From a virus: a stretch of 64,000 nucleotides of DNA. A program made the position numbers and the translations under genes. Position 1 is the first letter of the stretch; each line of letters begins with the position of its first letter. The notes below the pieces were generated by a model. It was not told the DNA's origin. It did no database searches and saw only the letters and a list, made by a program, of their open reading frames with translations. The stretch lies in IMG/VR virus record IMGVR_UViG_3300045988_159790. The stretch is one strand, 5' to 3'. Of this stretch, positions 19,473 to 34,353 are shown piece after piece.

Positions 19473-20410
19473 ACAATATGAAACAAAGACTTGATAGTCG
19501 CGGTGGTTTTCTTAATGGTCGTAATGTAAAAGGAAAATTGAATTCTTTTCATGCCGCACTTAATAACTCCTATCAGTCAGAGTGGATAACAGTAAATAAA
19601 GGAAAAGAAAATGAACAAAAAGTTCATTGCCTTATAAATCCTAGTAGATTAACAGAAGAGTTTGATAAAAAGGTTATTTCTGTTGATTTTGACAAAGGTA
19701 TAACTGAAGGAACTGTGTTCTATTGGGATAGAACAGAGAAATATTGGATTGTAAATTTACAGCAACATACTGAAGAAGCTTATTTTAGAGGAGATATTAC
19801 AAGATGTGATTATCAAGTTGATATTGATGGAGAGCATTATTGGGTTTATCTTCGTGGTCCAATAGAAACAGATATATCTTGGAGTCAAAAACATGGAATA
19901 TATTTTAATAATTTGAATTACTCTATGTTAATGCATATAACAAAAAATAAGAAGACTTTAGATTATTTTTCACGATTTAATGTAGTTAAGGTAAGTTTCT
20001 CTTATATAGATGAGAATGGTGAAAAACAAGAAGAATGGCATAGATGGCAAGTCGCGGCAACTGATAAATATTCTAATAACAATATTATTGAAGTGTATTT
20101 GAATGAATATGCGGATAACCCAATTGAAGAAGATAAAGTCAAGCAAGAAGAGAAAAAATTCTCTCCTGAAGAAGCTTATATCGATGGTCCGCAGTTTATA
20201 AATCCTTACGATGAAAATATTGTCTATACTATTAAAAATAGTGTTTGTGGAAGATTTATAGTTAATTCTAATAAAGTTAAAATTGTTGAATCGAATGACA
20301 ATTCATTAACATTAAATGTTTTAACAGGAAAATCTGCAAAATTTGATATTATATATCGGAAGCCAGAAGAAGATGATGTTGTTCTTAATGTAACAATTAA
20401 ATCATTATAG
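19460..20410 (+). CDS. hypothetical structural protein
   Basis: 316 aa ORF, overlaps previous stop. Confidence 0.5.
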   Translation: MSGLDNMKQRLDSRGGFLNGRNVKGKLNSFHAALNNSYQSEWITVNKGKENEQKVHCLINPSRLTEEFDKKVISVDFDKGITEGTVFYWDRTEKYWIVNLQQHTEEAYFRGDITRCDYQVDIDGEHYWVYLRGPIETDISWSQKHGIYFNNLNYSMLMHITKNKKTLDYFSRFNVVKVSFSYIDENGEKQEEWHRWQVAATDKYSNNNIIEVYLNEYADNPIEEDKVKQEEKKFSPEEAYIDGPQFINPYDENIVYTIKNSVCGRFIVNSNKVKIVESNDNSLTLNVLTGKSAKFDIIYRKPEEDDVVLNVTIKSL

Positions 20411-20428
20411 AGATAAAAGGAGAATAGA

Positions 20429-21037
20429 ATGGGAGTTAGAAGTCAGAAAATGAACTCAACTCTTCAAGGAGAGCCAAAATCCTCTTTTCTTTCATGTGAA
20501 AAAGATTTGGAATCAATTATTCGTAAGCTTTTTATAGAAGATAAAACTGTAAGTAATTATTTAAAAAGATTACTTGCAGTAAATACTTCAGATTGTTTAA
20601 TTGACAAAACAAATCCTGCTTACACAGATAAAGTAAATAAGTTATCTATAAAGAAATTATTAGATGATGGATATATCAGAATAAGTCCAAAGATTGAAAG
20701 AAAAGAAAATGAAGAAGTAAAATCATATATTAGAATTAATTTTGATAATTTTACTGAATCTAGTAATCCAGAATATAGAGACTGTATAGTAGAAATAGAT
20801 GTTTTATGTCATACTGATTACTGGGAATTGGAAAACTATCAATTAAGACCAATAAAAATTGTTGGATATATAGACGCCATTTTAAATAAAGCAAAACTTT
20901 CGGGAATAGGAACATTAAACTTTTTTGGTTGTACTGAAGTAACTTTAAGTAATGATTTATCAGGTTATTGTTTAATGTATCAAGCAACACATGGAAGTGA
21001 TGATTCAATTCCTGAAGAAGATGAAGATAATGATTAA
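20429..21037 (+). CDS. hypothetical structural protein (tail completion/terminator region)
   Basis: ORF with AAAGGAG RBS. Confidence 0.5.
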   Translation: MGVRSQKMNSTLQGEPKSSFLSCEKDLESIIRKLFIEDKTVSNYLKRLLAVNTSDCLIDKTNPAYTDKVNKLSIKKLLDDGYIRISPKIERKENEEVKSYIRINFDNFTESSNPEYRDCIVEIDVLCHTDYWELENYQLRPIKIVGYIDAILNKAKLSGIGTLNFFGCTEVTLSNDLSGYCLMYQATHGSDDSIPEEDEDND

Positions 21038-21779
21038 TGAGTTATTATTACTATCAAAAAATGACATTCCTTTTATTGAAGGACATGCAGTTATTCATAA
21101 TCCAACAATGAACGAGATTGCTCTTATAGGAGAGCGAGCTTTTAATATTGGCACACAATTTTTAAATTTTTCTAAAGAACTTTTATCTTCTAAGGACAAA
21201 AATGATTTAGAGGATAAAAGCGATTTTGATATATTTATGTCAGTAATGAATAGTCATGAGCGCTATGAATATAGAACTGATGCAATGCTAGTATTAGCAT
21301 TATTATTTCCAAACTGTCAATTAAAGATAGATAAAGATAAACTTATTTTAAAAGACCAAAATGGAGAAATCTTTATGGAAATAAATAATGATAATTTTAT
21401 TTCTTTTAGAGATAAAATAAGTGATTTATTTTGTCTTAAAAAAGTTGCAACTACTGCGGCGGTCTATGACCCAGCAGATAAGCAAGCCCGCAAGATAGCT
21501 GAGAAATTGAAAAAGAGACATGAGACTCTTGATAAAAAGAAAAATGGGGAAGAAAATGAGAATCAAAAAGTTTCAATTTTTGTTCGATATATTTCTATTC
21601 TTTCTATTGGTAATCATAAAGATATTAATGAGCTTATGAATTATACAGTTTATCAATTATTAGATGAGTTTACTCGTTTTCAAAAGAAACAAAGCTTTGA
21701 TGCTTATGTTCAAGCTAAAATTGCAGGGGCTAAAGACTTAGAAGAAGTTGAAAATTGGATGGGAGACATCCATTCATAG
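21030..21779 (+). CDS. hypothetical structural protein (start ATG 21030 overlapping upstream stop as ATGATTAA preferred over track start 20991)
   Basis: ORF; coupling overlap. Confidence 0.45.
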   Translation: MINELLLLSKNDIPFIEGHAVIHNPTMNEIALIGERAFNIGTQFLNFSKELLSSKDKNDLEDKSDFDIFMSVMNSHERYEYRTDAMLVLALLFPNCQLKIDKDKLILKDQNGEIFMEINNDNFISFRDKISDLFCLKKVATTAAVYDPADKQARKIAEKLKKRHETLDKKKNGEENENQKVSIFVRYISILSIGNHKDINELMNYTVYQLLDEFTRFQKKQSFDAYVQAKIAGAKDLEEVENWMGDIHS

Positions 21780-21809
21780 CAAATTATTTATTTAAGGAGG
21801 AAAAATATA

Positions 21810-22775
21810 ATGAAGTTTGGTGTCCGCGAAATATGCGATGTAACTTTTAAAGCTACTTCAAATAACCAAAAAATCGGAAAGAAAACTTTCAAAGCTGGAC
21901 AGCCAGCGTTTTTCATTGATAGTGCAAAAACATCTACTTTAGAGCAGGCTACAACAACAGTATATGCTCAAGGTGGTAAAGGTAACTCTCGTCTTATTGC
22001 TTGGGAAGGTGAAAAGACTATGACATTTACAGTTGAAGATGCTTTAATTTCTCCACAGGGTCTTGCTGTACTTTCAGGTGCAGGATTACTTGAAGCTGGT
22101 GAAAACGCAATTCAGCATGTTCATGTTACTATTGATGCAACAGTTGGTGATGAAGGTAAGGTAGAAATAAGCTTAGCAGAACTTAATGATGAATTAGGTA
22201 CAAATGAAGAAGAGCTTACTATCTGCGGAGATATTCCAGTATATGCTACAAAGCTTGATGGTTCAGGTGCAGGTATTGATTATTATTCAGATGTTACACT
22301 TACAGGTGCAACAGGAACAGAAAATGATTATCTTGTAAAAGTTAGCGATAATGCTGAATTTACAATTAAGGATGATGCATCTTTAGCTGTTACTAAGGGT
22401 ACTGTTGTTAAGTTAGACTTCTATGTAGCAATGAAGAAAGGTGTATCTGAAATTACTATTGCTCCAGAAGATTTCGGTGGATATTACTATGTTGAAGCTG
22501 ATACTTTATTCAGAAGTGAAGCTACTGGTAAAGATATGGCAGCTACAATTACAATTCCTAAAGCTAAAGTACAGTCAGCAATGACATTTACAATGGCTTC
22601 TAGTGGAGACCCAAGTACATTCACATTCACAATGGATGCATTCCCTGGATATACTTACTTTGATAGAACAAAGAAAGTTATGTGTACTATCCAGGTTGTA
22701 GGTACAGATGGAACAACAGAGGATGAAACATACCATAAAAATGTTCCAGCAGATACTCACAAAGCTACACCCTAA
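21810..22775 (+). CDS. major tail protein (zero-frame product)
   Basis: 321 aa beta-rich protein with AAGGAGG RBS between head-tail genes and chaperone/TMP genes; followed (after extension ORF) by strong terminator 23101-23140. Confidence 0.6.
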   Translation: MKFGVREICDVTFKATSNNQKIGKKTFKAGQPAFFIDSAKTSTLEQATTTVYAQGGKGNSRLIAWEGEKTMTFTVEDALISPQGLAVLSGAGLLEAGENAIQHVHVTIDATVGDEGKVEISLAELNDELGTNEEELTICGDIPVYATKLDGSGAGIDYYSDVTLTGATGTENDYLVKVSDNAEFTIKDDASLAVTKGTVVKLDFYVAMKKGVSEITIAPEDFGGYYYVEADTLFRSEATGKDMAATITIPKAKVQSAMTFTMASSGDPSTFTFTMDAFPGYTYFDRTKKVMCTIQVVGTDGTTEDETYHKNVPADTHKATP

Positions 22776-23073
22776 AGAAGAGCCGGCAGAGCCGGTATAC
22801 ACTATTTCATTAGGAGAGCCTGATAGTAGTGTTGTAGGAAAAGTATCGTGGGATGTTACAGTTCAGAAAGACGGAAAAACAGAAGGAACTTGTGCATTAG
22901 TAAGCTCTACTGTAAACGCTCTTGATGCAACAGAGAACACAACAGTAGTAGGAAATAAAGTAACAGTTGACTATACAGCAGCAGGAGGAACTACTGATGA
23001 AGAAGTTAAGATTGTCGTTAAGTGTGTAGAAGACAATACTAAGACAGCTACTGGAACTTATACAATCGCGTAA
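22774..23073 (+). CDS. C-terminal Ig-like (Big_2-type) extension of major tail protein reached by predicted programmed +1 frameshift at CCC_UAA (22770-22775)
   Basis: +1 frame ORF with no RBS of its own overlapping end of 21810..22775; sequence ...VTVDYTAAGG...TGTYTIA typical of phage Ig-like domains; shifty stop context CCC UAA A. Confidence 0.45.
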   Translation, partial: KEEPAEPVYTISLGEPDSSVVGKVSWDVTVQKDGKTEGTCALVSSTVNALDATENTTVVGNKVTVDYTAAGGTTDEEVKIVVKCVEDNTKTATGTYTIA

Positions 23074-23100
23074 GCGGGAATCCCGGTCAAGGATTTCTTT

Positions 23101-23140
23101 AGCGGGGTCGGGTTATTATACTCGACCCCGCATTTTTTTT
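23101..23140 (+). terminator. strong intrinsic terminator after major tail protein/Ig extension
   Basis: GCGGGGTCGGGTTATTATACTCGACCCCGC + ATTTTTTTT. Confidence 0.85.
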
Positions 23141-23159
23141 GTTTATAGGAGGTGAGACA

Positions 23160-24314
23160 GTGTCAAGAAAAAGTAATAAAAATACTGATACAGCATTATT
23201 TACTGCTAATGAAATTGAAGAGATAATTACTAATGTAGAAGGAATATTTAATTCTACAGAAGTAGATAATATTAGAGAAAAATTATTCAATATTTTAACA
23301 AAATTAAAAAGCTTAAAAGAAGACCTTATAAATGAATCTAATAAAAGAAATACTGTAAAACAAATGCGAGATTTTATAACAAAGAGATATACTGAATTAA
23401 AACCAAAAGATATACAGACGAAAAATCAAATGATAAAAATATATAACCATCATTTAACACAGTTATATGCTGAAGTTTATTTATGGATTATGAAAACTAG
23501 AGAATTTTTAACAGACCAAATAATTGATTATCATATATATTTTGGTGATGATACAAATAATATTAAATTATTAGATTTGAATGATTATGAGCTATTAAGA
23601 GTTTTAACTGGCTCAGTAAACGAAATTAAAATAGTGACTAGTAAGCTATTAGAACAAATTAGACAAGAAAGATTGGAAGGAAAACAGTTAGTTCAAAAAG
23701 AAGGAATACTTTCTAATGAAGAGAAGCAAAGAATAATAGATAGTCAAAATATTTCAGATTCACAAGGCGCACAACTTTCTAAATATTACAATTTAGCATT
23801 ACAAAGTGGGCATCTTAAAAAAGAAGGAAATTCAACTTATTATGTAAAATTACCATTTCCAAAGTACCAAAAAGGAAAAGGGAAAGAAAAGGAAGAAGTA
23901 AGTTTCAATTTTGGACATGTAGCGGAAGGTTTTGATACAGCTTTTAGTGAGGCACAAAGAGACGAAAAATTATTCACATTAAACGATTTTGCTATTAAAA
24001 TTGAACGAGATAATGTTAAAGCAGCTCAAGGTGGAGATAATTCTACATATATGTTTCATCATTATTCTGTTAAAGCGAATATGAAAGATAGTGGAGCTTC
24101 TCTTCAGCTTACTTCAACTATAATGTTAAATTTAGATAGATTAATCAAATTACTAAATACAAACACTGAAGAACTAAAGAAAAGAGAAGTTCTAAAAGAG
24201 TTGTATTTTAAAGAAAAAAAATATGAAGATTTAAAAAATGGTGCAGAATTAATGAATTCTCAGATAGATAAAGCTTTAGATATCGTTCTAAATGATTTTA
24301 ATAAGAAGACTTAG
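23160..24314 (+). CDS. hypothetical protein in tail assembly chaperone position (K/E-rich, helical)
   Basis: GTG 23160 with AGGAGG RBS (track TTG 23139 less likely); between major tail and tape measure. Confidence 0.5.
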   Translation: MSRKSNKNTDTALFTANEIEEIITNVEGIFNSTEVDNIREKLFNILTKLKSLKEDLINESNKRNTVKQMRDFITKRYTELKPKDIQTKNQMIKIYNHHLTQLYAEVYLWIMKTREFLTDQIIDYHIYFGDDTNNIKLLDLNDYELLRVLTGSVNEIKIVTSKLLEQIRQERLEGKQLVQKEGILSNEEKQRIIDSQNISDSQGAQLSKYYNLALQSGHLKKEGNSTYYVKLPFPKYQKGKGKEKEEVSFNFGHVAEGFDTAFSEAQRDEKLFTLNDFAIKIERDNVKAAQGGDNSTYMFHHYSVKANMKDSGASLQLTSTIMLNLDRLIKLLNTNTEELKKREVLKELYFKEKKYEDLKNGAELMNSQIDKALDIVLNDFNKKT

Positions 24315-24317
24315 AAA

Positions 24318-24346
24318 TTGACAATTTAAAAAAAATATGATATACT
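24318..24346 (+). promoter_or_regulatory. internal promoter TTGACA-17-TATACT upstream of 24376..24903
   Basis: Read from sequence. Confidence 0.6.
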
Positions 24347-24375
24347 ATAATTAAGAAATAAAAGGAGGGCTAATA

Positions 24376-24903
24376 ATGCCAAGTTTTAAAGAGTTAGATA
24401 TATCAGTAAATTCTGATTTATATTATGAGGGAGCAACTATAAATAATCACCCTATAAAAGTAAAGCAATATATCCCTATTGAAGAAAAAATAGAGATTGC
24501 GACAAATGTATTAAAAAATTCTTTTGATGAAAAGAATAGTTTTGCCAATCCTTTTAAAGTATCTGTTTATTTTGCTTTAGAGGTTATATATCATTATACA
24601 GATATTTTCTTTACAGATGAAGAAAAAGAAGACCCTACTAACTTATATAACATTCTTGAAAGTAATGATGTTATAAGTGCGGTTATTTCATTAATACCAA
24701 AAGATGAATATGATTATTTAAAATCAACTACAGATGAATTAATTAAGAATTTTTATGCTTATCGTAATTCTGTGTTAGGTATTTTAGAAGCTGTTAATGA
24801 AGATTATGCTGTTACACAGGCAGATTTAGACAATATTATTAAGGAAGTAGAAGACCCTAATTCATTAGGATTATTAAAAGAAATTATGACAAAATTGGGC
24901 TAA
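24376..24903 (+). CDS. hypothetical acidic protein in tail assembly chaperone position
   Basis: RBS AAAGGAGGG; own consensus promoter 24318-24346; terminator 24960-24996 after. Confidence 0.5.
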   Translation: MPSFKELDISVNSDLYYEGATINNHPIKVKQYIPIEEKIEIATNVLKNSFDEKNSFANPFKVSVYFALEVIYHYTDIFFTDEEKEDPTNLYNILESNDVISAVISLIPKDEYDYLKSTTDELIKNFYAYRNSVLGILEAVNEDYAVTQADLDNIIKEVEDPNSLGLLKEIMTKLG

Positions 24904-24959
24904 AATGTTCTATCGGTTCATAGGTTTCTCGAAATATTTTAGAAAAAGAAAATTATAAT

Positions 24960-24996
24960 GGGAATGTGATATTCATATCGCATTCCCATTTTTTAG
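24960..24996 (+). terminator. intrinsic terminator before tape measure gene
   Basis: GGGAATGTGATATTCATATCGCATTCCC + ATTTTTT. Confidence 0.7.
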
Positions 24997-25020
24997 TATA
25001 GAGAAAAAGGAGAAAAATGA

Positions 25021-28000
25021 ATGGCAGGAAGAAAAAGAATTGATATTGATATAGGGTTCAATACCGATACCTCAAGAGCAAAAGCTCAAATTCAAGATTT
25101 ACAAAAACAGATAGTTAATTTATCGGTTGCCGCAAAGCAGAATACAGCAACTAATACCTTATCTTCTGATATTTCCAAAGCTGTAATAGAAGCTAGTAAA
25201 TTAAATGGTATATTATCACAATCAATGACTTTTAAGGGAGATAACCTTGATTTATCTAAATTTGTTACAAACTTAAATAAGTCTGGTACTACTATTTCTC
25301 AAGTTCGTAAGAATTTAGAATCATTAGGTCCTCAAGGTCAAAAAGCATTTACATCTTTAGCGCAATCTATTATGTCTGCGGAAGTTCCTTTAAGACAGTC
25401 TGAAGGACTTTTAAAGAGTTTTTCTACTACTCTTACAAATAGTGCGAAATGGACTGTAGCTTCAGGTGCCGTTCATCAAGTACAAACAGAATTTAGTAAA
25501 GCTTTTGAATATAGTAGAAAGCTTGATAAATCATTAAATGAAATTAGAATAGTATCTGGAGAAAGTTCAGATAATATGGCTAAATTTGCTAAACAAGCAA
25601 ATGAATCTGCCAAAGCTTTAAATACAACAACAACTGCATATACAAATGCGGCATTAATCTTCTATCAGCAAGGTCTGGATACTGCCGCAGTTAAGGAACG
25701 TACTGATGCAGTTACAAAGATGGCAAGTGTTACAGGAGAGACTGCGGCGGATGTTTCTTCTTATATGACAGCTATTTGGAATAACTTTAATGATGGTTCA
25801 AAAAGCGTAGAATACTTTGCAGATGTTCTTACTGCATTAGGTGCGGCAACTGCATCTAGTACAGATGAAATCGCAGCAGGTCTTGAGAAGTTTGCTTCTA
25901 TTGGTAATACTGTAGGTTTATCATACGAATATGCTACTTCTGCTCTTGCAACTGTTGTTGCAGAAACTCGTCAGTCCGCAGATACTGTAGGTACTGCATT
26001 TAAGACATTATTCGCACGTATCCAGGACTTAGAGTTAGGTAATACTTTAGATGATGGAACAACATTAGGTCAGTATTCTAAGGCTCTTGAATCTATTGGT
26101 GTTAATATTAAAGATTCAAAAGGCGAAGTTCGTGATATGGATGATATCTTAGACGATATGGGTTCTAAATGGAAAACCATTTCTAAGGATACACAGATTG
26201 CAGTTGCGCAAGCAGTTGCAGGTACTCGTCAGTATAGCCAATTAATTGCCTTAATGGATAAATGGGATGTCTTCCAAGAGAACTTAAATATAGCTAAGGG
26301 TGCAGAAGGTTCTTTACAACAGCAAGCTGATATTTATGCAGAATCATGGGATGCCGCATCTAAGAAAATAAAAACTTCATTAGAAGAAATTTATTCAAAT
26401 CTTATTGATAGTAAAACTATGGTTGATTTAATGAAATTCCTTAGTAAAGCTATTGAAGGATTTGGTCATTTTGTTGATTCTGTTGGTGGAGTTAGAACTG
26501 CTTTTATTTTATTAGCAAATACTATAATTTCTAATCAAGGTCCTCAAATAAGCAAATATGTTGATAAAGTTGTTGATAACTTTAAAATTAAATTTGGTAT
26601 TATGGGCAAAGAAATTGAGGCAACCCGAGAGAAGGCTCAAAAAGAATATAAAGCTATGATTGCGGGAATGGATATAAGAACGCCAGAAGACCGTGCGCAA
26701 GTAGCTAATATGAAAGCAAATTATGATATTGAAAATGCTATTTTTGAGAAGAAAAAAGAGTTAGCTAAAATAAATGCAAATTTAACTGAATCTCAAATAG
26801 AACAAATAGCTAATGAAAAAGCTCAATTAAAACAATTAACAGAAGAAGCTGAAGTTACAGCTCAGATTTATGATACTAAAAATAAAGCTAGACACGCTGC
26901 ATCTGACGATATTTCATCTATTGGTCAGAGATTTAAAAGCACTAATTTATCTTTAGACAACGTAGACAGTAAAAAAATTCGTGAAAAAATTACTTCAGAA
27001 GTAAACAAAGCTTATTATGCAAAAAATTTACCTGAAAATACTTTACAAGAGCTTTATGCAAAGAAAGTATTATTAGGTGAAGCAGATGAATTACCTAGTG
27101 AATATTATCTTAGTCAAAACTATAAAGGTATAGAAAAAACCAGAGCAAGAAATAGCCGCTATTGGGATATGATACATCAAGTTGACCCTGCAGATGAGAA
27201 TGGTAATTATAGATTCTCAGAAAAAGAACGAAGACCAACAAATAGTGCGAATATTAATAAAACAGTATATAAATCATACCTTGAAAAATATAGAGATACT
27301 AAAAAGTTAGCTGAAGGCATGGTTAATCCTAATTTTGATGAAGAAGCACAGGAAGCTCTTCAGAATCAATTTTTTGAAGACTATAATGCTGCAGAATTAG
27401 CATATGCTGGAAATGAAACTAATATTTCTACTAGTAATAAAGTTTTAAATTTATTTGATATGAATAAAGTTAAATCAGGTAAATTTTCTTTAAAAGATAT
27501 GCAAGAAACATTATCTACTCTTTATAATTCTTCAAATGAAAATAAGCGAATGATTGATGACCTTATGAAATTAAATGAATATAAAAAAGAAGGTAATATT
27601 AAAAAGCTTATTACTGGTCAGAATGTAGCAGGTGCAGATAAAACAGACTATGCTCATATGCTACAGATGATTGAAAACAATAGAACGAGTTATCTTACAA
27701 ATCGAGATACTCTTAGTGGCAATCTCAGAGGTGTTTTACAAAATTACGGTTTTGAAGCTACAGATGTTACAAAGATATCTGACGCACTTGATGAACAACA
27801 TAAAGCGATAAAGGCTTCAGATAAGTCTTTAGCAGATTATGTAAAATCTTTATTAGATGTTCAAAATCATTCTAAATCAGTAGTTGATTCTATTAATGAG
27901 ATGGGATTTTCTGTAGGTAGTATTGGCGAGAATTTTGCTAATGGCGCGAGTGCTATGAGTAGTTTTGCGATGACTGCTAATAGTGCTTATTCTGTTTTTG

Positions 28001-31000
28001 AATCTATAGAAGAATTATTTTCTGGAGATTTAAAATTAAGTATTGGTTCTATAATTGGACTTTTTACTCAATTGGGCTTTAGTGTGTCTGGTTTTCTTCA
28101 AACAAAGAAATCATTTAATCAATTTTCAAACATGCTTTCGGGAACTATTGGTAATAGAGCTACTTTAAAAGACCAAAAAGCATTAGAAGACAGAAAATAC
28201 AATTTAGCAGAAACAAAAGATAGTATTGATGCTTCATTTAAAGAATATCTTGAAAAGAAAAGTGTATTTGGAAAAGATAAAGGTAAACAAAAGAAATTAT
28301 CAGATTTTGCAAGTTTGATAGGTGAAAGTCAAACAATAGACTTGCCAGATAATTTATCTAAAATGAGTGCTGATGAAAGAAAAGATTGGCTTTCTAAAGT
28401 AAGTGGAGCAAAAATTGATTCGCAATATAGAACTAGAGATTCTAGACTTACAGGAATTACAAAGGGTCTTATTACAAATGATAATGAATGGGCAAACTTT
28501 ACTGAAAGTTTAAAGCAGAGAAAAGCTGCCGCACAAGAAGAGCAAGATATTGTAGCAACAACTCAAGCGGTTGAAGGTCGTGGAATTCAAATCGCAAGTA
28601 AAGTTTCAAAGGCAATGGGCGCAATTGGTATTGCTGTTCAGGTTGCAACAGCAGCGTATGCCGCGTATAACCTTATTCATAAAGCGGTTGTAGCTAATTT
28701 ACAAAAAGAGGCAGAAGAAAGTCTTAGAGTAGCACAAAATACAACAGAAAGAACAAAGCAGTATAAAGAAGAATCAGATAAAGTTAGTGAATTAAAGAAA
28801 GCTTATGATGAATTATATAATAAGTATAATGATGGAGAATTATCAGCTTCCGCATTAAAGAAACAAAGCTATGACCTTTGTATGCAATATGGTGAAGAAG
28901 AGCTTGCAGTAAAAGCATTAAGTGGAGAATATAAGAGTCTCGAAGAAGCTATGAAGTCTATTGAGAGTAAAAAAACAGAGAAAACACTTAATTCTGCAAA
29001 GCAAGAACAGAAAAACTATGAAATAGCTCTTAAAGACCAATTAAGTGCAAGTGCAGAAGAAGATTCAGGTAGAAGAGATTTTGTTAATGGAACTGAGACT
29101 ATTGACTTAAAAGGTATGGTTGCAAGAAATTCTAAAGAAAAGAATTTAGCTAGTCAACTTCAAGAATTAGGAGTTCAATTCCTTACAAATGATAAAATTA
29201 GTCTCCAAAGTTTAGCTACTGCAATTAAGACAGATGCGGATGCAGTTCAATCTGTATTAAATGATTCTGATACTTCTGCAGCAAAACAATTAAGACAGTA
29301 TTTATCAAGTGCAAAAGACCAAATTGATGGTTTAACAGAATCTATAGATACTGCGCATGAAGCCCAAAAGACTATGATTGTAGATGCCCAAAACTTTGAT
29401 GCGATTAATTCTATTGAAGACTATACTACAACATGGAGAAATATGGTCCATGAAGCGTTAAGTAAAGGTGTTTATGATTCTATTGAGGATGCTTCAAAAT
29501 GGGCAAATTCGTATATGTCTGCTATTGATAGTATAAAAGAATATGCTCAAACTGCAACAGTTGCTGACACTATTATGTCTAATACTTCTACAGATGTATT
29601 TAAAGATATTCAAAAACAGAAAGATGAAATTGATAAGAAGACTACTGAAGATTATCTTAATGCTGTTGGGGATAATGCTAAATATATCTATCAAGATAAA
29701 GGTTTATTTGGTACGGGTCTTTTTGCAAAAGGTGAAATAACTGAAGAAGAATACAATAGCCATAATAAGTCTTATAATCAAGTTGGCGCAGGCGGTAATT
29801 ATATATATACTAAAGAAGTTGACCAAAATGCTGTTCAAGAATGGAAAGATAGTCAAAAAATAGCTTCTGAATTAAATAGTTTACAATATTATGAATCTAT
29901 GACGAAAGCTTTAGATAACTATTCTACTTATGAACAAAGTTTCTTTAGTGATAATTTTTCTCAGTTGCTTAGTGAAGCAATGGAGAAGAATAGTAATAAT
30001 ACAGAAAAAGCTTTATCTTCATTGGCAGAAAAGCTTCCTAATGTATTTAAAGGAAGTGCAGAAAAAGGCGAAGCTGATTATGCACAAACTTTAGTTGATG
30101 GTTTAATTACTGATAAAACAGAACTAACAGATAAGCAAAAGAAACAAATTCTTGATACTCTTGATTTTTCCGGTGTTACATCTGAAGGTGTATCAGTTGA
30201 TGAAAAAACTTTAAATAATATGGATTGGTCATCTCAAGCTACTCTTATGGCATCTTTCTATGGCGAGAAATTAAAGTTAATTGAAGAGACTGGTGATGCG
30301 GCAAGAGAAGAAGCTCAATTAGAAGCTGATACATATAAAGAAAAATATAAAGAGCAAATAGATGACTATAAAGAAGCTCAAAAAGAATTAGAATTATTAT
30401 CAGAAGATTCAGATGCTAATTTCACTCAAGATGATATTGGTAAATTAGTTGATAAGTTTAATGGCAATGATTTAAGTGGTCTTAATAGTGACACTATTAG
30501 AGATTTAAAAGATGCTATGAAAAATCAAGGCTATGGCAGTGATGATAGTGATGTTGTAAATTTCTTTAAAAAGCTTAGTAATAAAAAATATTCAGACCAG
30601 TTAGAGAAACTTGATGATTTAGTTAAAGACCTTACCGTTGATTCAGAAGATTGGAACAAGGTTGTTAAAGCTGGCGAAAAAGCGCAAGAAGCTAATAGTA
30701 GTGTTATTGATGAAATTCAAACTGGGTATAAGACTCTAACATCTGCTATGAAGGATTATAATGCTAATGGTTACTTTACTATGGATAATCTTCAAGCTAT
30801 CCTTGAACTTGAACCTAAATATCTTTCAGCATTAGAGTGGGATGGAAGTCAGTTTAAGTTAAATACTGCTGACTTAAAAGAGATGACTAAGGCTAAACTT
30901 GCGGATATGGCAGTAAGTCAAGCAAGAATTACTGTAGCTAAAGTTGAATCTATTTTATCAAGCGATAATGTAGTTAATGCAGCTATGGAATTAGAGATGA

Positions 31001-34000
31001 CTCAAAAGTTGACTACATCGACAATGAGTTATGCAGAGACTTTAATTGCAGAAGCTAGAGGTTTAGCTGCTGCAAACACAGAGCTTCAGAACAATGCTGC
31101 AGCAATGCAACAAGTTACAATGTATATTGATGCGCAGGAAAATGCGATTGCCGCGATAGGCAATGTTTATGATAATATTGATGCGCATTTTGATAAGATT
31201 ATGGGTAGTAGTTCTGCTGCTTCATCTTCAAAGAAGAAATACTTTGAAGATGAGTTCGATAGATATTGGGAATTTAAGAAGGCTATTGATGAAGTTGCTC
31301 ATGCAATGGAGCGCCTTGAAGATGAACAAGATAATCTGTACGGACAAGAATTAATTGATAATCTTAATCAAGTAAATGATTTATTAGTAACTCAAAAAGC
31401 TAATTATGAAGCTTTATATGAAGCACAAAAGGTTGAAGCAGAAGAATTAAGAAGCTCATTAAGTGCTTATGGTGCATTATTTGATGAGGAAGGTCGTCTT
31501 ACAAACTATGCAGATATTACGACATCTATGTTTGCACAGTATGGTAATGTTGATGATTCAGAAACATATGAAGAATTTAAGAAATATCTTGAAAGATATG
31601 ATACTCTTTATTATTCTGAAATGGTCGATACTACAGATAAGATTGTAGAAGAATCTAAGAAGATACTTGAAAATAATCTTAAGATTTGGGAAACAGATAT
31701 CCAAATTAACTTAGATTTAAAACAAGCTGAAAGAGACTGGAATGATTTCTTAAAAGAGATTAACAGAAACTTTAAATCAACATTTAGTGATGCAGGACAA
31801 GAGATTGAATATGCTTTAAAGAAAGCTCAAACATTTAACTTAAATGATGGAACTCTTGCAAGTGATATTCAGAAAGTTGAGAATATCAACTATGAAATAG
31901 ACCAATTGAAGAATGGCGGAACAAGTGATTTATTTAGTTCTTTATCAGAAGCAGAAAATGCTTTAAAAGAAGCTAACAAGACACTTCAAGATGATGCTGA
32001 GGAGCTATTCTCAACATATGAAGAAGGTTGGAACGCTTATTTAGAATATATTGATGATGTAGGAACGCATCTTGATAATATTAATAAGAAATATGAAGAA
32101 TTAAATGAAGAGCTTGAACATCAAGCTAATTTAATTAGTCTTTTATATGGAGATACAGCTTATGATAAACTTGCTAAGTTATATGATACTCAACAGAAAA
32201 ATAATTTAGCTCAATTAAAATCTTTAAGACAACAGACAGATTTTTATCAGGCACAATATGAGAAAGCTGTTCAATTAGATGGTGAAGATAGTAAATCCGC
32301 AGAAAAATGGCTTGAAAAGAAAAAACAAGCTATGCAAGACCTTCGTTCAGAAGAAGAGACTTACATTAAGACTATTCAAAGTAAATATAATAATACTATT
32401 GATAGTATCATTAAAAAAGCTAGAATGGCTACTAATGGCGGAGTTGACACTGATTGGGCTAGAACCATGTATGATTTAACAAAGACTAAATCAGAAGGTA
32501 ATTATGATGATGTTGAAAGAGTATATCAATTAACTTCATTACAATCTAAATGGAATAAATTAATTGCAGATACTACAGGAACTAAAAATCAAGAAAAGTT
32601 AAAGAAGATTATGGATGAGCAATTAGCTAATCTTGAAAAGAAAGCTACTTTAACAGAGTATGACATTGGTCTCGCGGAAAAAGCACTTGCGGTAGAACAA
32701 GCTAGAATAGCGCTTGAGCAAGCTCAGAATTCAAAAGATAGTATGAAGCTTACTAGAAATGCAGAAGGTAATTGGTCTTATCAATATGTAGCAGATGAAG
32801 ATAATGTTGCGGAAAAGCAACAAGATTTATTAGATGCTATTAATGATAAATATGAATATGTAAAATCTGCAAATCAACAAGCTTTAGATGATTTACTTCA
32901 ATATGAAGAAGATTTCTGGAATAAATACGCGGAGATTATGAAAGATGTTTCCTTATCTGATGAAGAAAGACAAAGTAGAATAGCTCAACTTTATGATATG
33001 TATTATGGAAAAGAAGGTATTCTTACTCAAGCTTATCAAGACTCTGCACAAACACAACAAGATTTAAACCTTGTTACAGCAGAACAATTATGGGCTATTT
33101 ACGAATCAGACCAAGAGAAGTATGCTACTATGACTGCTGCAGAACAAGAGTTAATAGATGGTTTAAAGAACGGAACTATTAAATCTTATGAAGATATTCA
33201 AGAAGCTGGTCAAAGAGTTAATGATGAAAGTCTTGACTATTGGAATACAACTGCACAAGCAATGGCAGATGCATGGAATGCAGATGATGGAATGAGTATT
33301 AAATCTCAGGTTAATGAAGCTTTAAAGGATTGCTCATCTGCATTAGGAGATTATAATGCAGATGTTGATGCAGGATGCGCAGCCGCAGGTGAAGATTTTA
33401 CAGATGTGGGTAGTGCGATAGATGATGTATCTAGTGCTATTGATGATTTAGATGGAACAACTGAAGATTATATTGACAATGCAGAAAAATTAATTGATGA
33501 TTACATAAATAGTTTAAAAGAATTAGAATCTCAATGGAAAGAAGTTAAGGCTATTGTTGAACAAAATATTGAAACTATGAAGAAATATGAGTTAGCAGCA
33601 AAGAGTGCTTCTACTGTCAAAACTCCAGCTGCTGCAGCTCCATCAAGCGGAGGTAGTGTAGGTGGAAATTCTACTGATATTGCAGATAATAACCCTCCGG
33701 AAGAAACAGTTCATTACTATTCAGTAGATAGCGCACCAGATGGTGATGGTTTAGTAGTAACAGTATATGAAAGAACGGGAAATAGTGAAAAAGCGATAGG
33801 ACGAGATGGAGAAGAGCCAAAAGATTACAGAGACCATAGAATTAGTTCTGTTTGGGAAGCTAGAGATTATATAAATCAAGTTTTATCTGATAATGGATAT
33901 GATGAAGAGTTAGACCCTAATGTAAATGTTCAAACAAGCGGTTACAAATATTATTTAGATAATGCAAGAGTAAATACATATTCTTTCGATACTGGCGGAT

Positions 34001-34353
34001 ACACTGGAGAATGGGATAATTCAGGAAGACTTGCAGTATTGCATCAAAAAGAGCTAGTTTTAAATAAAGATGATACAGAAAACATTCTTAATGCAGTTGA
34101 ATTTGTTCGTGGAATTGCAAGCTCTATAGGAGCTTCATTATTATCTCAACTTGCGGGAATGACAAATGCTACTTCTAGTATTCATCCAGTTAGTGCAGAT
34201 TACTTATCTTCTAATGTTAGTAATGCTTCTAATAATAATGTCTATAATGTTACTGCAGAGTTCCCTAATGCAGAGAGTGTTCAAGATATTAGAGAAGCTT
34301 TATTAAGTTTACCTAATTTAGTTAGTCAAAAAGTTAATGAAAAAAATATTTAA
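25021..34353 (+). CDS. tail tape measure protein (3110 aa)
   Basis: Very long A/S/Q/K/E-rich, largely helical ORF in canonical position after major tail/chaperones; RBS AAGGAG. Confidence 0.85.
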   Translation: MAGRKRIDIDIGFNTDTSRAKAQIQDLQKQIVNLSVAAKQNTATNTLSSDISKAVIEASKLNGILSQSMTFKGDNLDLSKFVTNLNKSGTTISQVRKNLESLGPQGQKAFTSLAQSIMSAEVPLRQSEGLLKSFSTTLTNSAKWTVASGAVHQVQTEFSKAFEYSRKLDKSLNEIRIVSGESSDNMAKFAKQANESAKALNTTTTAYTNAALIFYQQGLDTAAVKERTDAVTKMASVTGETAADVSSYMTAIWNNFNDGSKSVEYFADVLTALGAATASSTDEIAAGLEKFASIGNTVGLSYEYATSALATVVAETRQSADTVGTAFKTLFARIQDLELGNTLDDGTTLGQYSKALESIGVNIKDSKGEVRDMDDILDDMGSKWKTISKDTQIAVAQAVAGTRQYSQLIALMDKWDVFQENLNIAKGAEGSLQQQADIYAESWDAASKKIKTSLEEIYSNLIDSKTMVDLMKFLSKAIEGFGHFVDSVGGVRTAFILLANTIISNQGPQISKYVDKVVDNFKIKFGIMGKEIEATREKAQKEYKAMIAGMDIRTPEDRAQVANMKANYDIENAIFEKKKELAKINANLTESQIEQIANEKAQLKQLTEEAEVTAQIYDTKNKARHAASDDISSIGQRFKSTNLSLDNVDSKKIREKITSEVNKAYYAKNLPENTLQELYAKKVLLGEADELPSEYYLSQNYKGIEKTRARNSRYWDMIHQVDPADENGNYRFSEKERRPTNSANINKTVYKSYLEKYRDTKKLAEGMVNPNFDEEAQEALQNQFFEDYNAAELAYAGNETNISTSNKVLNLFDMNKVKSGKFSLKDMQETLSTLYNSSNENKRMIDDLMKLNEYKKEGNIKKLITGQNVAGADKTDYAHMLQMIENNRTSYLTNRDTLSGNLRGVLQNYGFEATDVTKISDALDEQHKAIKASDKSLADYVKSLLDVQNHSKSVVDSINEMGFSVGSIGENFANGASAMSSFAMTANSAYSVFESIEELFSGDLKLSIGSIIGLFTQLGFSVSGFLQTKKSFNQFSNMLSGTIGNRATLKDQKALEDRKYNLAETKDSIDASFKEYLEKKSVFGKDKGKQKKLSDFASLIGESQTIDLPDNLSKMSADERKDWLSKVSGAKIDSQYRTRDSRLTGITKGLITNDNEWANFTESLKQRKAAAQEEQDIVATTQAVEGRGIQIASKVSKAMGAIGIAVQVATAAYAAYNLIHKAVVANLQKEAEESLRVAQNTTERTKQYKEESDKVSELKKAYDELYNKYNDGELSASALKKQSYDLCMQYGEEELAVKALSGEYKSLEEAMKSIESKKTEKTLNSAKQEQKNYEIALKDQLSASAEEDSGRRDFVNGTETIDLKGMVARNSKEKNLASQLQELGVQFLTNDKISLQSLATAIKTDADAVQSVLNDSDTSAAKQLRQYLSSAKDQIDGLTESIDTAHEAQKTMIVDAQNFDAINSIEDYTTTWRNMVHEALSKGVYDSIEDASKWANSYMSAIDSIKEYAQTATVADTIMSNTSTDVFKDIQKQKDEIDKKTTEDYLNAVGDNAKYIYQDKGLFGTGLFAKGEITEEEYNSHNKSYNQVGAGGNYIYTKEVDQNAVQEWKDSQKIASELNSLQYYESMTKALDNYSTYEQSFFSDNFSQLLSEAMEKNSNNTEKALSSLAEKLPNVFKGSAEKGEADYAQTLVDGLITDKTELTDKQKKQILDTLDFSGVTSEGVSVDEKTLNNMDWSSQATLMASFYGEKLKLIEETGDAAREEAQLEADTYKEKYKEQIDDYKEAQKELELLSEDSDANFTQDDIGKLVDKFNGNDLSGLNSDTIRDLKDAMKNQGYGSDDSDVVNFFKKLSNKKYSDQLEKLDDLVKDLTVDSEDWNKVVKAGEKAQEANSSVIDEIQTGYKTLTSAMKDYNANGYFTMDNLQAILELEPKYLSALEWDGSQFKLNTADLKEMTKAKLADMAVSQARITVAKVESILSSDNVVNAAMELEMTQKLTTSTMSYAETLIAEARGLAAANTELQNNAAAMQQVTMYIDAQENAIAAIGNVYDNIDAHFDKIMGSSSAASSSKKKYFEDEFDRYWEFKKAIDEVAHAMERLEDEQDNLYGQELIDNLNQVNDLLVTQKANYEALYEAQKVEAEELRSSLSAYGALFDEEGRLTNYADITTSMFAQYGNVDDSETYEEFKKYLERYDTLYYSEMVDTTDKIVEESKKILENNLKIWETDIQINLDLKQAERDWNDFLKEINRNFKSTFSDAGQEIEYALKKAQTFNLNDGTLASDIQKVENINYEIDQLKNGGTSDLFSSLSEAENALKEANKTLQDDAEELFSTYEEGWNAYLEYIDDVGTHLDNINKKYEELNEELEHQANLISLLYGDTAYDKLAKLYDTQQKNNLAQLKSLRQQTDFYQAQYEKAVQLDGEDSKSAEKWLEKKKQAMQDLRSEEETYIKTIQSKYNNTIDSIIKKARMATNGGVDTDWARTMYDLTKTKSEGNYDDVERVYQLTSLQSKWNKLIADTTGTKNQEKLKKIMDEQLANLEKKATLTEYDIGLAEKALAVEQARIALEQAQNSKDSMKLTRNAEGNWSYQYVADEDNVAEKQQDLLDAINDKYEYVKSANQQALDDLLQYEEDFWNKYAEIMKDVSLSDEERQSRIAQLYDMYYGKEGILTQAYQDSAQTQQDLNLVTAEQLWAIYESDQEKYATMTAAEQELIDGLKNGTIKSYEDIQEAGQRVNDESLDYWNTTAQAMADAWNADDGMSIKSQVNEALKDCSSALGDYNADVDAGCAAAGEDFTDVGSAIDDVSSAIDDLDGTTEDYIDNAEKLIDDYINSLKELESQWKEVKAIVEQNIETMKKYELAAKSASTVKTPAAAAPSSGGSVGGNSTDIADNNPPEETVHYYSVDSAPDGDGLVVTVYERTGNSEKAIGRDGEEPKDYRDHRISSVWEARDYINQVLSDNGYDEELDPNVNVQTSGYKYYLDNARVNTYSFDTGGYTGEWDNSGRLAVLHQKELVLNKDDTENILNAVEFVRGIASSIGASLLSQLAGMTNATSSIHPVSADYLSSNVSNASNNNVYNVTAEFPNAESVQDIREALLSLPNLVSQKVNEKNI

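Follow-up and report, generated by a model that had tools for sequence, protein, structure and literature searches.

A likely +1 frameshift site at the CCC-UAA end of a tail tube gene, with an immunoglobulin-like domain encoded beyond the stop, in a siphovirus known from metagenomes

The window analysed here is a 64,000-nucleotide (nt) stretch of viral DNA (IMG/VR virus record IMGVR_UViG_3300045988_159790; 31% GC) that is identical to part of the 147-kb IMG/VR contig UViG_3300045988_154566, and it belongs to a phage that is known from metagenome assemblies alone. On its plus strand lies the gene for a 321-amino-acid (aa) tail tube protein, whose 3′ end is overlapped by an open reading frame (ORF) in the +1 frame. 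This second frame continues for 99 codons past the stop codon of the tube gene and is predicted to encode an immunoglobulin (Ig)-like domain, and the junction of the two frames is a candidate site of programmed ribosomal frameshifting. From 5′ to 3′, the features of the locus are as follows.

21794..21800, plus strand: Shine-Dalgarno sequence AAGGAGG of the tube gene, read from the sequence; its duplex with the anti-Shine-Dalgarno (anti-SD) sequence is calculated at -11.1 kcal/mol, typical for genes of the window
21810..22775, plus strand: tail tube (major tail) protein gene of the SPbeta/SPR YomU type, 0 frame, 321 aa (ORF list, PHROGs, homologs, Foldseek)
22702..22772, plus strand: overlap of the +1 frame with the end of the tube gene, delimited by the frame boundaries, with ATGs at 22708, 22723 and 22741
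22770..22776, plus strand: candidate shift site CCC TAA A (sequence, codon counts, conservation)
22774..23073, plus strand: +1-frame extension of 99 codons and a stop, consisting of a Pro/Glu-rich linker (KEEPAEP) and then a predicted seven-strand Ig-like beta-sandwich
22782..22796, plus strand: hairpin GCCGGC-AGA-GCCGGU, 6 bp with a 3-nt loop, 6 nt past the stop (folding, covariation); candidate shift stimulator
23102..23140, plus strand: intrinsic terminator, a 12-bp stem with nine G-C pairs followed by a T-run (terminator scan)

The 321-aa product is a tail tube (major tail) protein and belongs to the YomU_Tube family. It matches phrog_2729 (virion structural protein) with E = 5e-52 in PHROGs. 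The YomU_Tube model (PF27173) is absent from the Pfam copy that was run directly on the tube protein, and the family assignment comes by way of precomputed Pfam matches of its homologs, namely those on a protein that is 97% identical over all 321 aa (P0001) and on the tube genes of five related contigs (L021, L023, L024, L065 and L067). In related contigs, the neighbours of the equivalent tube genes are homologs of YomW, YomV and YomO together with a tape measure gene, and this gene set is the tail module of the Bacillus subtilis prophage SPbeta. The gene order proceeds from the tube gene through two further genes to a tape measure gene of 3110 aa. A phmmer search of the tube protein against PDB chain sequences found nothing, and kinship to SPR itself is therefore distant, such that the identity of the protein had to be established by comparison of folds. 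In an AlphaFold2 model of the 420-aa product described below, the core and an inserted domain are well predicted, although the mean predicted local distance difference test score (pLDDT) is 65.6, and the best PDB matches of this model by Foldseek are to the tail tube protein of the SPbeta-like phage SPR (9jgi, 9jgh, 8xkn and 8ygm; E ~1e-6), with the tube proteins of YSD1 (6xgr), Chi and JBD30 next. Homologs detected by tblastn reside in large Firmicute siphoviruses, including Tsamsa-like Bacillus phages, the Lactococcus 949 group and Enterococcus phages of ~140 kb, and some of those from isolated phages are annotated as “tail tube protein” or “major tail protein”. The assignment agrees with a preliminary description of this DNA, made from the sequence alone, which had taken the gene to encode the major tail protein and whose statements on the sequence itself, that the 0-frame gene ends in ACA CCC UAA A and is overlapped by an ORF in the +1 frame, all hold.

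The beta domain inserted in the tube fold (residues ~100-210, pLDDT 83-94) varies more than any other region in the alignment of the family. It has a weak, sub-threshold Pfam match to DUF5006 and is comparable to “domain2” of the major tail protein (MTP) of YSD1.

The 3′ end of the tube gene reads AAA GCT ACA CCC TAA A, with ACA CCC TAA A at 22767-22776 and the UAA stop at 22773-22775. Among the 447 proline codons in the 52 ORFs of the window, CCC is the rarest, with 15 occurrences (3.4%, or 0.79 per 1000 codons) against 186 of CCT, and the tube gene is the only one of the 52 genes to end in CCC followed by a stop. The same ACA CCC TAA/TAG is invariant in eight non-identical versions of the site from 11 independent assemblies of different samples (window/L002, L003, L024/L025, L021/L022, L023, L065/L066, L067 and L079), across which identity declines to 69% in the tube protein and to ~45% or less in the extension. 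A shift at the CCC gives the sequence ...THKATP-KEEPAEPVYTISLGE..., in which the junction is KATP-KEEPAEP, and a product of 420 aa, from which Asp-N is predicted to release the junction-spanning peptide DTHKATPKEEPAEPVYTISLGEP. The 24 nt upstream of the CCC (CCAGCAGATACTCACAAAGCTACA) contain no GGAGG-like run, and the upstream sequence ends ...GATACTCACAAAGCTACA.

The +1 frame is open from 22702 to its stop at 23071-23073, and its first ATG is located at 22708. Public gene callers split the locus into the 321-aa tube protein and an orphan hypothetical protein of 116 aa that begins at an ATG in the overlap. However, the overlap is probably not translated in the +1 frame, as judged from its sequence: substitutions between relatives within 22702..22772 follow the codon phase of the 0 frame, albeit in small counts, and the ATGs at 22708, 22723 and 22741 have anti-SD duplex energies of -5.2, -4.2 and -3.1 kcal/mol, respectively, which is the background level for ATGs of the window. 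Among the plus-strand genes of the window, 27 of 33 have an anti-SD duplex of -9 kcal/mol or stronger, and the median is -11.1 kcal/mol. Beyond 22741 the +1 frame lacks ATG, GTG and TTG codons, and the ATG nearest to the tube stop lies 32 nt upstream of it. The +1 ORF had originally been said to possess neither a ribosome-binding site nor a plausible start; it does lack a Shine-Dalgarno sequence, but the denial of any plausible start was slightly overstated, as three in-frame ATGs are present in the overlap.

Beyond the stop, the +1 frame has the properties of coding sequence. Over 91-100 codons among the relatives it is free of stops, whereas the other two frames contain 9-14 stop codons. Differences between relatives are concentrated at the third codon position of the +1 frame (17/15/41 at the first, second and third positions), and the ratio of nonsynonymous to synonymous substitution rates (dN/dS) is 0.17-0.22 in this frame and >1 in the other frames. 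On account of the third-position bias, the low dN/dS and the open frame, the extension is taken to be translated and under purifying selection. The dN/dS values from the final 600 nt of the tube gene (window versus L021) were not used, as a length difference of one codon may have inflated them.

The extension is assigned, with some caution, to the Ig-like fold, although not to any named family. It is predicted at low confidence in the full-length model and was therefore modelled alone, whereupon the best model displays a seven-strand beta-sandwich (pLDDT 92.2; predicted template modelling score 0.79) whose two sheets superpose on immunoglobulin or FN3 domains. Neither hmmscan against Pfam-A (E up to 1) nor PHROGs returns a family for the 99 aa, and so the earlier label “Big_2-like” (PF02368) is dropped, whereas the broader designation of an Ig-like domain is borne out by the structure model. 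Word-indexed and exhaustive protein searches with the extension recovered only the +1 ORFs of the relatives, the protein P0127 and one Big_1 repeat protein. A phmmer search against 1.84 billion representatives gave a weak match to P0126 (E = 4.6e-6 over 12 stretches), a protein composed of 13 Big_1 repeats, which may inflate its score. An in-frame 404-aa homolog of the tube protein (P0096) had been guessed to share the extension domain, and BLASTP gave no significant similarity.

Downstream of the stop, and separated from it by 6 nt, is the short GC-rich hairpin, with a folding energy of -10 to -11.9 kcal/mol and z-scores of -2.3 to -3.2 relative to shuffled sequence. All eight site versions retain the 6 bp and the AGA loop, as well as the length of the spacer, the sequence of which is variable. 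The stems are GCCGGC/GCCGGY in the group to which the window belongs, UCCGGU/ACCGGA in L065 and UCCGGU/GCCGGA in L067. In an alignment of the six distinct hairpin sequences, 36 of 36 cells pair and two of the six pairs display compensatory changes (G-U/G-C to U-A, and C-G to U-A/U-G); pairing is lost in a shifted register, and 12 of 500 column shuffles match the observed score. The stem contains the rare codon CCG twice (P(CCG|Pro) = 0.085 in the window). For a ribosome that has CCC in its P site and the stop in its A site, the stem starts 13 nt from the first P-site base, a distance that corresponds to the mRNA entrance of the ribosome, and this placement is consistent with a stimulatory role. 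A larger downstream structure appears in an 81-nt fold (z = -3.8), but L065 and L067 do not share its sequence. Rfam models matched to positions 20000-26000 of the window gave nothing beyond chance sub-threshold microRNA matches. The intrinsic terminator at 23102..23140 is placed after the extension rather than after the 0-frame stop, and the relatives have a comparable terminator past their extension or long in-frame form or, where there is no extension, directly after the stop.

The locus is thus likely to be a site of programmed +1 frameshifting at CCC_UAA, by which a minority of the tail tube protein would be made in a decorated form, and this proposal, already put forward in the preliminary description as a +1 shift that fuses an Ig-like domain to the tube protein, is supported by every computational test that was run. 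One gene would then have two products. Most ribosomes would stop at the UAA (22773-22775) and release the 321-aa tube protein. In a fraction of cases, with the rare CCC in the P site and a slowly decoded stop in the A site, the peptidyl-tRNA-Pro would slip by +1 onto CCU; the next codon would be AAA (Lys), and translation of the +1 frame would add 99 residues to give the 420-aa tube protein. The hairpin, positioned at the mRNA entrance, would probably lengthen the pause and raise the frequency of shifting. Both forms would then co-assemble in the tail tube, and a set proportion of its subunits would present an Ig-like domain to the outside. As in SPP1, lambda and T5, the analogous systems, the domain would mediate a weak and dispensable adhesion to carbohydrates of the host surface.

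The closest parallel among known systems is gene 17.1 of phage SPP1, in which, as described in PMC6316719, a +1 shift at CCCUAA moves the ribosome from the rare CCC to the frequent CCU and yields gp17.1*, which has an additional 87 aa with an FN3 motif. The two forms, gp17.1 and gp17.1*, occur in tails at ~3:1 and the extension is dispensable, conclusions that are experimentally proven (Auzat et al. 2008, as related in PMC6316719 and PMC8718954). The 3′ end of the SPP1 gene, as read here, is GCT CCC TAA T. Both loci are siphovirus tail tube genes with CCC UAA at their very end, a +1 direction of shift and an Ig-type cargo (87 aa, FN3/Ig-like, in SPP1; 99 aa, Ig-like, in the window), and both belong to the type of phage that has a low-GC Firmicute host, although the phage of the window is known from metagenomes only. 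They differ in that the tube protein of SPP1 has 177 aa, whereas that of the window has 321 aa, is of the YomU/SPR type and carries an inserted domain, so that the two belong to different families; the extension domains have no detectable sequence similarity, and nothing like the 6-bp GC hairpin, 6 nt past the stop, is obvious in SPP1. In SPP1, moreover, the products and their 3:1 ratio are proven, whereas the locus in the window is known from sequence alone.

A second set of parallels is provided by Listeria phages. Shifts of +1 at CCC_UGA occur at the end of the tsh genes of PSA, A118 and A500 (Zimmer 2003 and Dorscht 2009, as covered in PMC5009743), and the same source describes a +1 shift in PSA cps at ACA_CCC that involves a pseudoknot and no stop codon, whereas the tsh sites use a stop alone. 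The preliminary description had regarded a +1 shift at a stop codon as the less common mechanism, a remark that does not fit the record for tube genes, in which such shifts are documented in SPP1 and in Listeria PSA, A118 and A500 (PMC6316719; PMC5009743). Like the window, the tsh systems combine a +1 shift at CCC-stop with low-GC hosts in which CCC is infrequent (~5% of Pro codons in Listeria versus 3.4% in the window), while the ACA_CCC of PSA cps is the same pair of codons as in the window and is likewise accompanied by downstream RNA structure. The window differs in bringing together a stop codon and a simple conserved hairpin, in having UAA/UAG rather than UGA as the stop, and in the family of the protein. 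Judged by its sequence, the locus has every sequence-level feature of the “shifty stop” class of SPP1 and Listeria tube genes. It is distinguished by its tube family, by its unclassified Ig-like domain and by having both a stop codon and a simple conserved hairpin; the mechanism itself is already established, and the conserved hairpin is the only feature that is mildly novel.

The proposed architecture of the 420-aa product also has counterparts among tube proteins that carry Ig-like C-terminal decorations in frame, namely lambda gpV (Big_2), T5 pb6 (Big_2) and the YSD1 MTP (Big_1) (PMC8718954). In these proteins, as in the predicted product, a flexible linker connects the tube domain to an Ig-like beta-sandwich that faces outward, and the likeness to YSD1 extends to the inserted “domain2” and to the Foldseek match to 6xgr. 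However, lambda, T5 and YSD1 each make a single in-frame product such that every subunit is decorated, whereas in the window only the frameshifted fraction would be, and the extension has no match to the Pfam models of Big_2 and Big_1. A further comparison, drawn in the preliminary description, is with prfB. The prfB shift takes place at CUU UGA, needs an internal Shine-Dalgarno sequence 3 nt upstream and serves as a feedback sensor of the level of release factor 2. The analogy is apt insofar as a P-site tRNA would slip by +1 while the A site is occupied by a stop codon, but it goes no further, because there is no Shine-Dalgarno sequence upstream of the CCC; the window instead has CCC and a conserved downstream hairpin, and the shift would serve to supply two structural proteins in a set proportion.

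A number of points weigh against frameshifting at this site and must be set beside the evidence in its favor. The phage is known from metagenomes alone. Sequence searches returned no tube protein that carries the 99-aa domain in frame, and the in-frame C-terminal domains that are known in the tube family differ from it. Its structure prediction is unstable, with pLDDT between 40 and 92 among the five models of the extension alone and between 39 and 68 in the full-length model. Conservation of the hairpin is confounded with that of the P-x-E-P linker that the same nucleotides encode, and its covariation derives from only six distinct sequences, with a score that is reached by the 12 shuffles in 500 mentioned above. 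In addition, the in-frame ATGs of the overlap could serve for independent initiation or reinitiation. It could thus be that the +1 ORF is a separate small gene, started at an internal ATG or by termination-reinitiation, that gives rise to a free Ig-like protein of 110-121 aa, whose role could be, for example, that of a decoration in its own right or of an assembly factor. We regard this as improbable. Public callers do annotate the ORF in this way (P0121-P0124 with 116-117 aa, and P0127 with 112 aa), every relative examined has an in-frame ATG in the overlap, and translationally coupled overlaps exist elsewhere in the window (for example, 19161/19183 and 20991/21037). Nevertheless, an ATG is expected by chance within 19-27 open codons of AT-rich sequence, no overlap ATG is furnished with a Shine-Dalgarno sequence, no start codon follows the tube stop, and substitutions in the overlap keep the phase of the 0 frame, although their numbers are small. 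A separate gene would also leave unexplained both the invariance of a rare CCC before the stop and the fixed 6-nt distance of the hairpin, and it sits poorly with the C-terminal domains that are fused in frame to the tube protein in members of the family.

Other readings attribute the frame difference to an accident or to RNA polymerase. If an in-frame fusion of tube and Ig-like domains had been broken by an indel of 1 nt, or had been misassembled, the extension would be an error or a remnant in decay that is no longer expressed. With in-frame fusions in ~33 of 94 family members, a broken fusion is conceivable as an origin, and Fraser and colleagues have outlined a route by which out-of-frame Ig-like domains later become expressed by frameshifting (cited in PMC5009743). 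A sequencing error is excluded because 11 independent assemblies, with tube protein divergence of up to 31%, share the identical arrangement, and a dead remnant because the frame is open and the extension is under purifying selection (dN/dS ~0.2); this account has, in our estimation, very little chance of being correct. Still less credence is given to transcriptional slippage, in which RNA polymerase rather than the ribosome would change the frame. Such slippage is a known route to an alternative frame in bacteria and phages (reviewed in PMC5009743), but it needs a homopolymer, typically of at least 7-9 A or T, and none is present in the overlap (22702-22775), the longest homopolymers near the site being CCC and AAA. 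The conserved elements are instead the CCC-stop site and the hairpin downstream.

The arrangement in the window is one of several among the YomU-type tube genes. A survey of ~94 non-identical members from IMG/VR and metagenome contigs, in which L094 and L128 were counted as in-frame long forms because the open frame downstream of each is the next gene, gave the following distribution.

In-frame C-terminal domain: ~33 of ~94 tube genes; 100-190 extra residues
No extension: ~28 of ~94 tube genes; terminator directly after the stop
Extension in the -1 frame: ~22 of ~94; C_CCA_AAA/C, TCT TTT TAA, (N)CT/GAT TTT C.., G_GGG_GAA-stop, A_AAA_AAA
Extension in the +1 frame: ~10 of ~94; eight versions of the window type, L020 and L085

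The -1 extensions span 93-183 codons and lie behind recognisable slippery sites, among which are the heptamers C_CCA_AAA and C_CCA_AAC, the P-site-only TCT TTT TAA, and T_TTT_C followed by a rare CCG or CCA (L010, L012, L013, L016, L031, L044, L060, L108, L112, L116, L119, L124, L129, L130, L136, L140, L141, L145, L148 and L153). Most of them encode a domain of ~140 aa (ANQ...WIALDI.TG..DIT...GHFVLW), for which Pfam has no model and which other members carry in frame. The two remaining +1 cases are of other kinds. L085 (2083-2297) has GTG TTA CCC TAA, an independent CCC-stop site in another lineage with no obvious hairpin, and its extension is a large ANQ/WIG domain that is different from that of the window. 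In L020 (3970-4429), the sequence is GCT TTT CCC GGT TAA, downstream of which the +1 frame is open for 148 codons and encodes a large ANQ-type domain; the shift in this case may occur at UUU_C with the rare CCC in the A site. The extension domain of L085 and L020 is the larger ANQ...WIALDI.TG...GHFVLW domain, which members with -1 and in-frame extensions carry as well. As judged from these sequences, the family appears to attach outward-facing domains to the tube protein interchangeably, in frame or by way of the -1 or +1 frame, a pattern also described for phage Ig-like domains in the review of Atkins et al. (PMC5009743). The tube genes of L082 and L083 end in ACT TTT TAA and TCT TTT ACG TAA, with 35-36 open codons in the -1 frame, and these short frames may be what is left of a -1 extension after degradation.

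A similar cassette is found in an unrelated phage group with a GC content of ~45% (L069, minus strand, ~7626 on the reverse complement; L071, 2686-2711; L076, 4216-4241). The tube protein of these phages has ~190 aa, belongs to Phage_TTP_1 (PF04630) and ends ...VPTP, encoded with ACA CCC TAG/TAA; the same 6-nt spacer follows and then a hairpin of the form TCCGGT-AGA-(C/G)CCGGA. Their +1 frame has only 17 codons, which encode an acidic tail, S.TPVDPEDDTDDEPNG. The likeness suggests a shift cassette that is either shared or convergent. It is a tentative idea, and one that we hold to be rather doubtful, that ACA-CCC-UAR, a 6-nt spacer and an NCCGGN-AGA-NCCGGN hairpin, the sequence of which also codes for a P-x-E-P linker, form a portable cassette that moves between unrelated tube families, with the hairpin as a true stimulator of +1 shifting at a stop codon. 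If this were so, the cassette would amount to a modular “recoding linker” by which tail decorations could be attached and swapped at tunable stoichiometry. A scan with the DNA motif also produced chance matches inside long ORFs of L070 and L078, as well as ambiguous high-GC matches in L073-L075, which were not used.

The most immediate consequence concerns annotation, in that the locus should be recorded as a single gene that has two products, which is how the SPP1 gene is entered, and the same correction applies to dozens of relatives with -1 or +1 sites. If the frameshift operates as proposed, the proven CCC-stop +1 mechanism would extend to the SPbeta/SPR-type tube family of large (~147 kb) siphoviruses from gut and rumen, and the hairpin would be a simple candidate for an element that stimulates +1 shifting at stop codons in bacteria. 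The presence of in-frame, -1 and +1 attachment within one protein family would also be a clean natural illustration of the idea of Fraser and Atkins, in which recoding rescues Ig-like domains that have landed at random. The DSR2 defence system is triggered by tube proteins of the SPR type, and one may speculate that variable decoration could matter for immune recognition.

Relatives of the tube gene number in the thousands in human-gut and other metagenome assemblies, so that the phage group is abundant, and the nearest isolated relatives are Enterococcus phages of ~140 kb (H1, EF1, EF5 and VRE9_x), at 39% protein identity. Two scans of 185,579 species-representative genomes found no relatives of the tube gene, prophage forms included, and therefore no host can be assigned. 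No tRNA genes were found in the 64-kb window.

Downstream of the tube locus, the gene listed at 23139-24314 has a mechanical TTG start at 23139 that sits inside the T-run of the terminator. From the sequence, the start is probably the GTG at 23160, which is preceded by AGGAGGTG and gives a protein of 384 aa, as called in L024; this protein has no Pfam or PHROG match. The ORF at 24376-24903 has a weak YomO-like match, and no pair of ORFs in the manner of the lambda G/GT -1 frameshift is evident between the tube and tape measure genes. The tape measure gene itself occupies 25021-34353, encodes 3110 aa and corresponds to genes with PhageMin_Tail in the relatives. Tail length amounts to ~0.15 nm per tape measure residue, which implies a tail of roughly 450 nm, an unusually long one.

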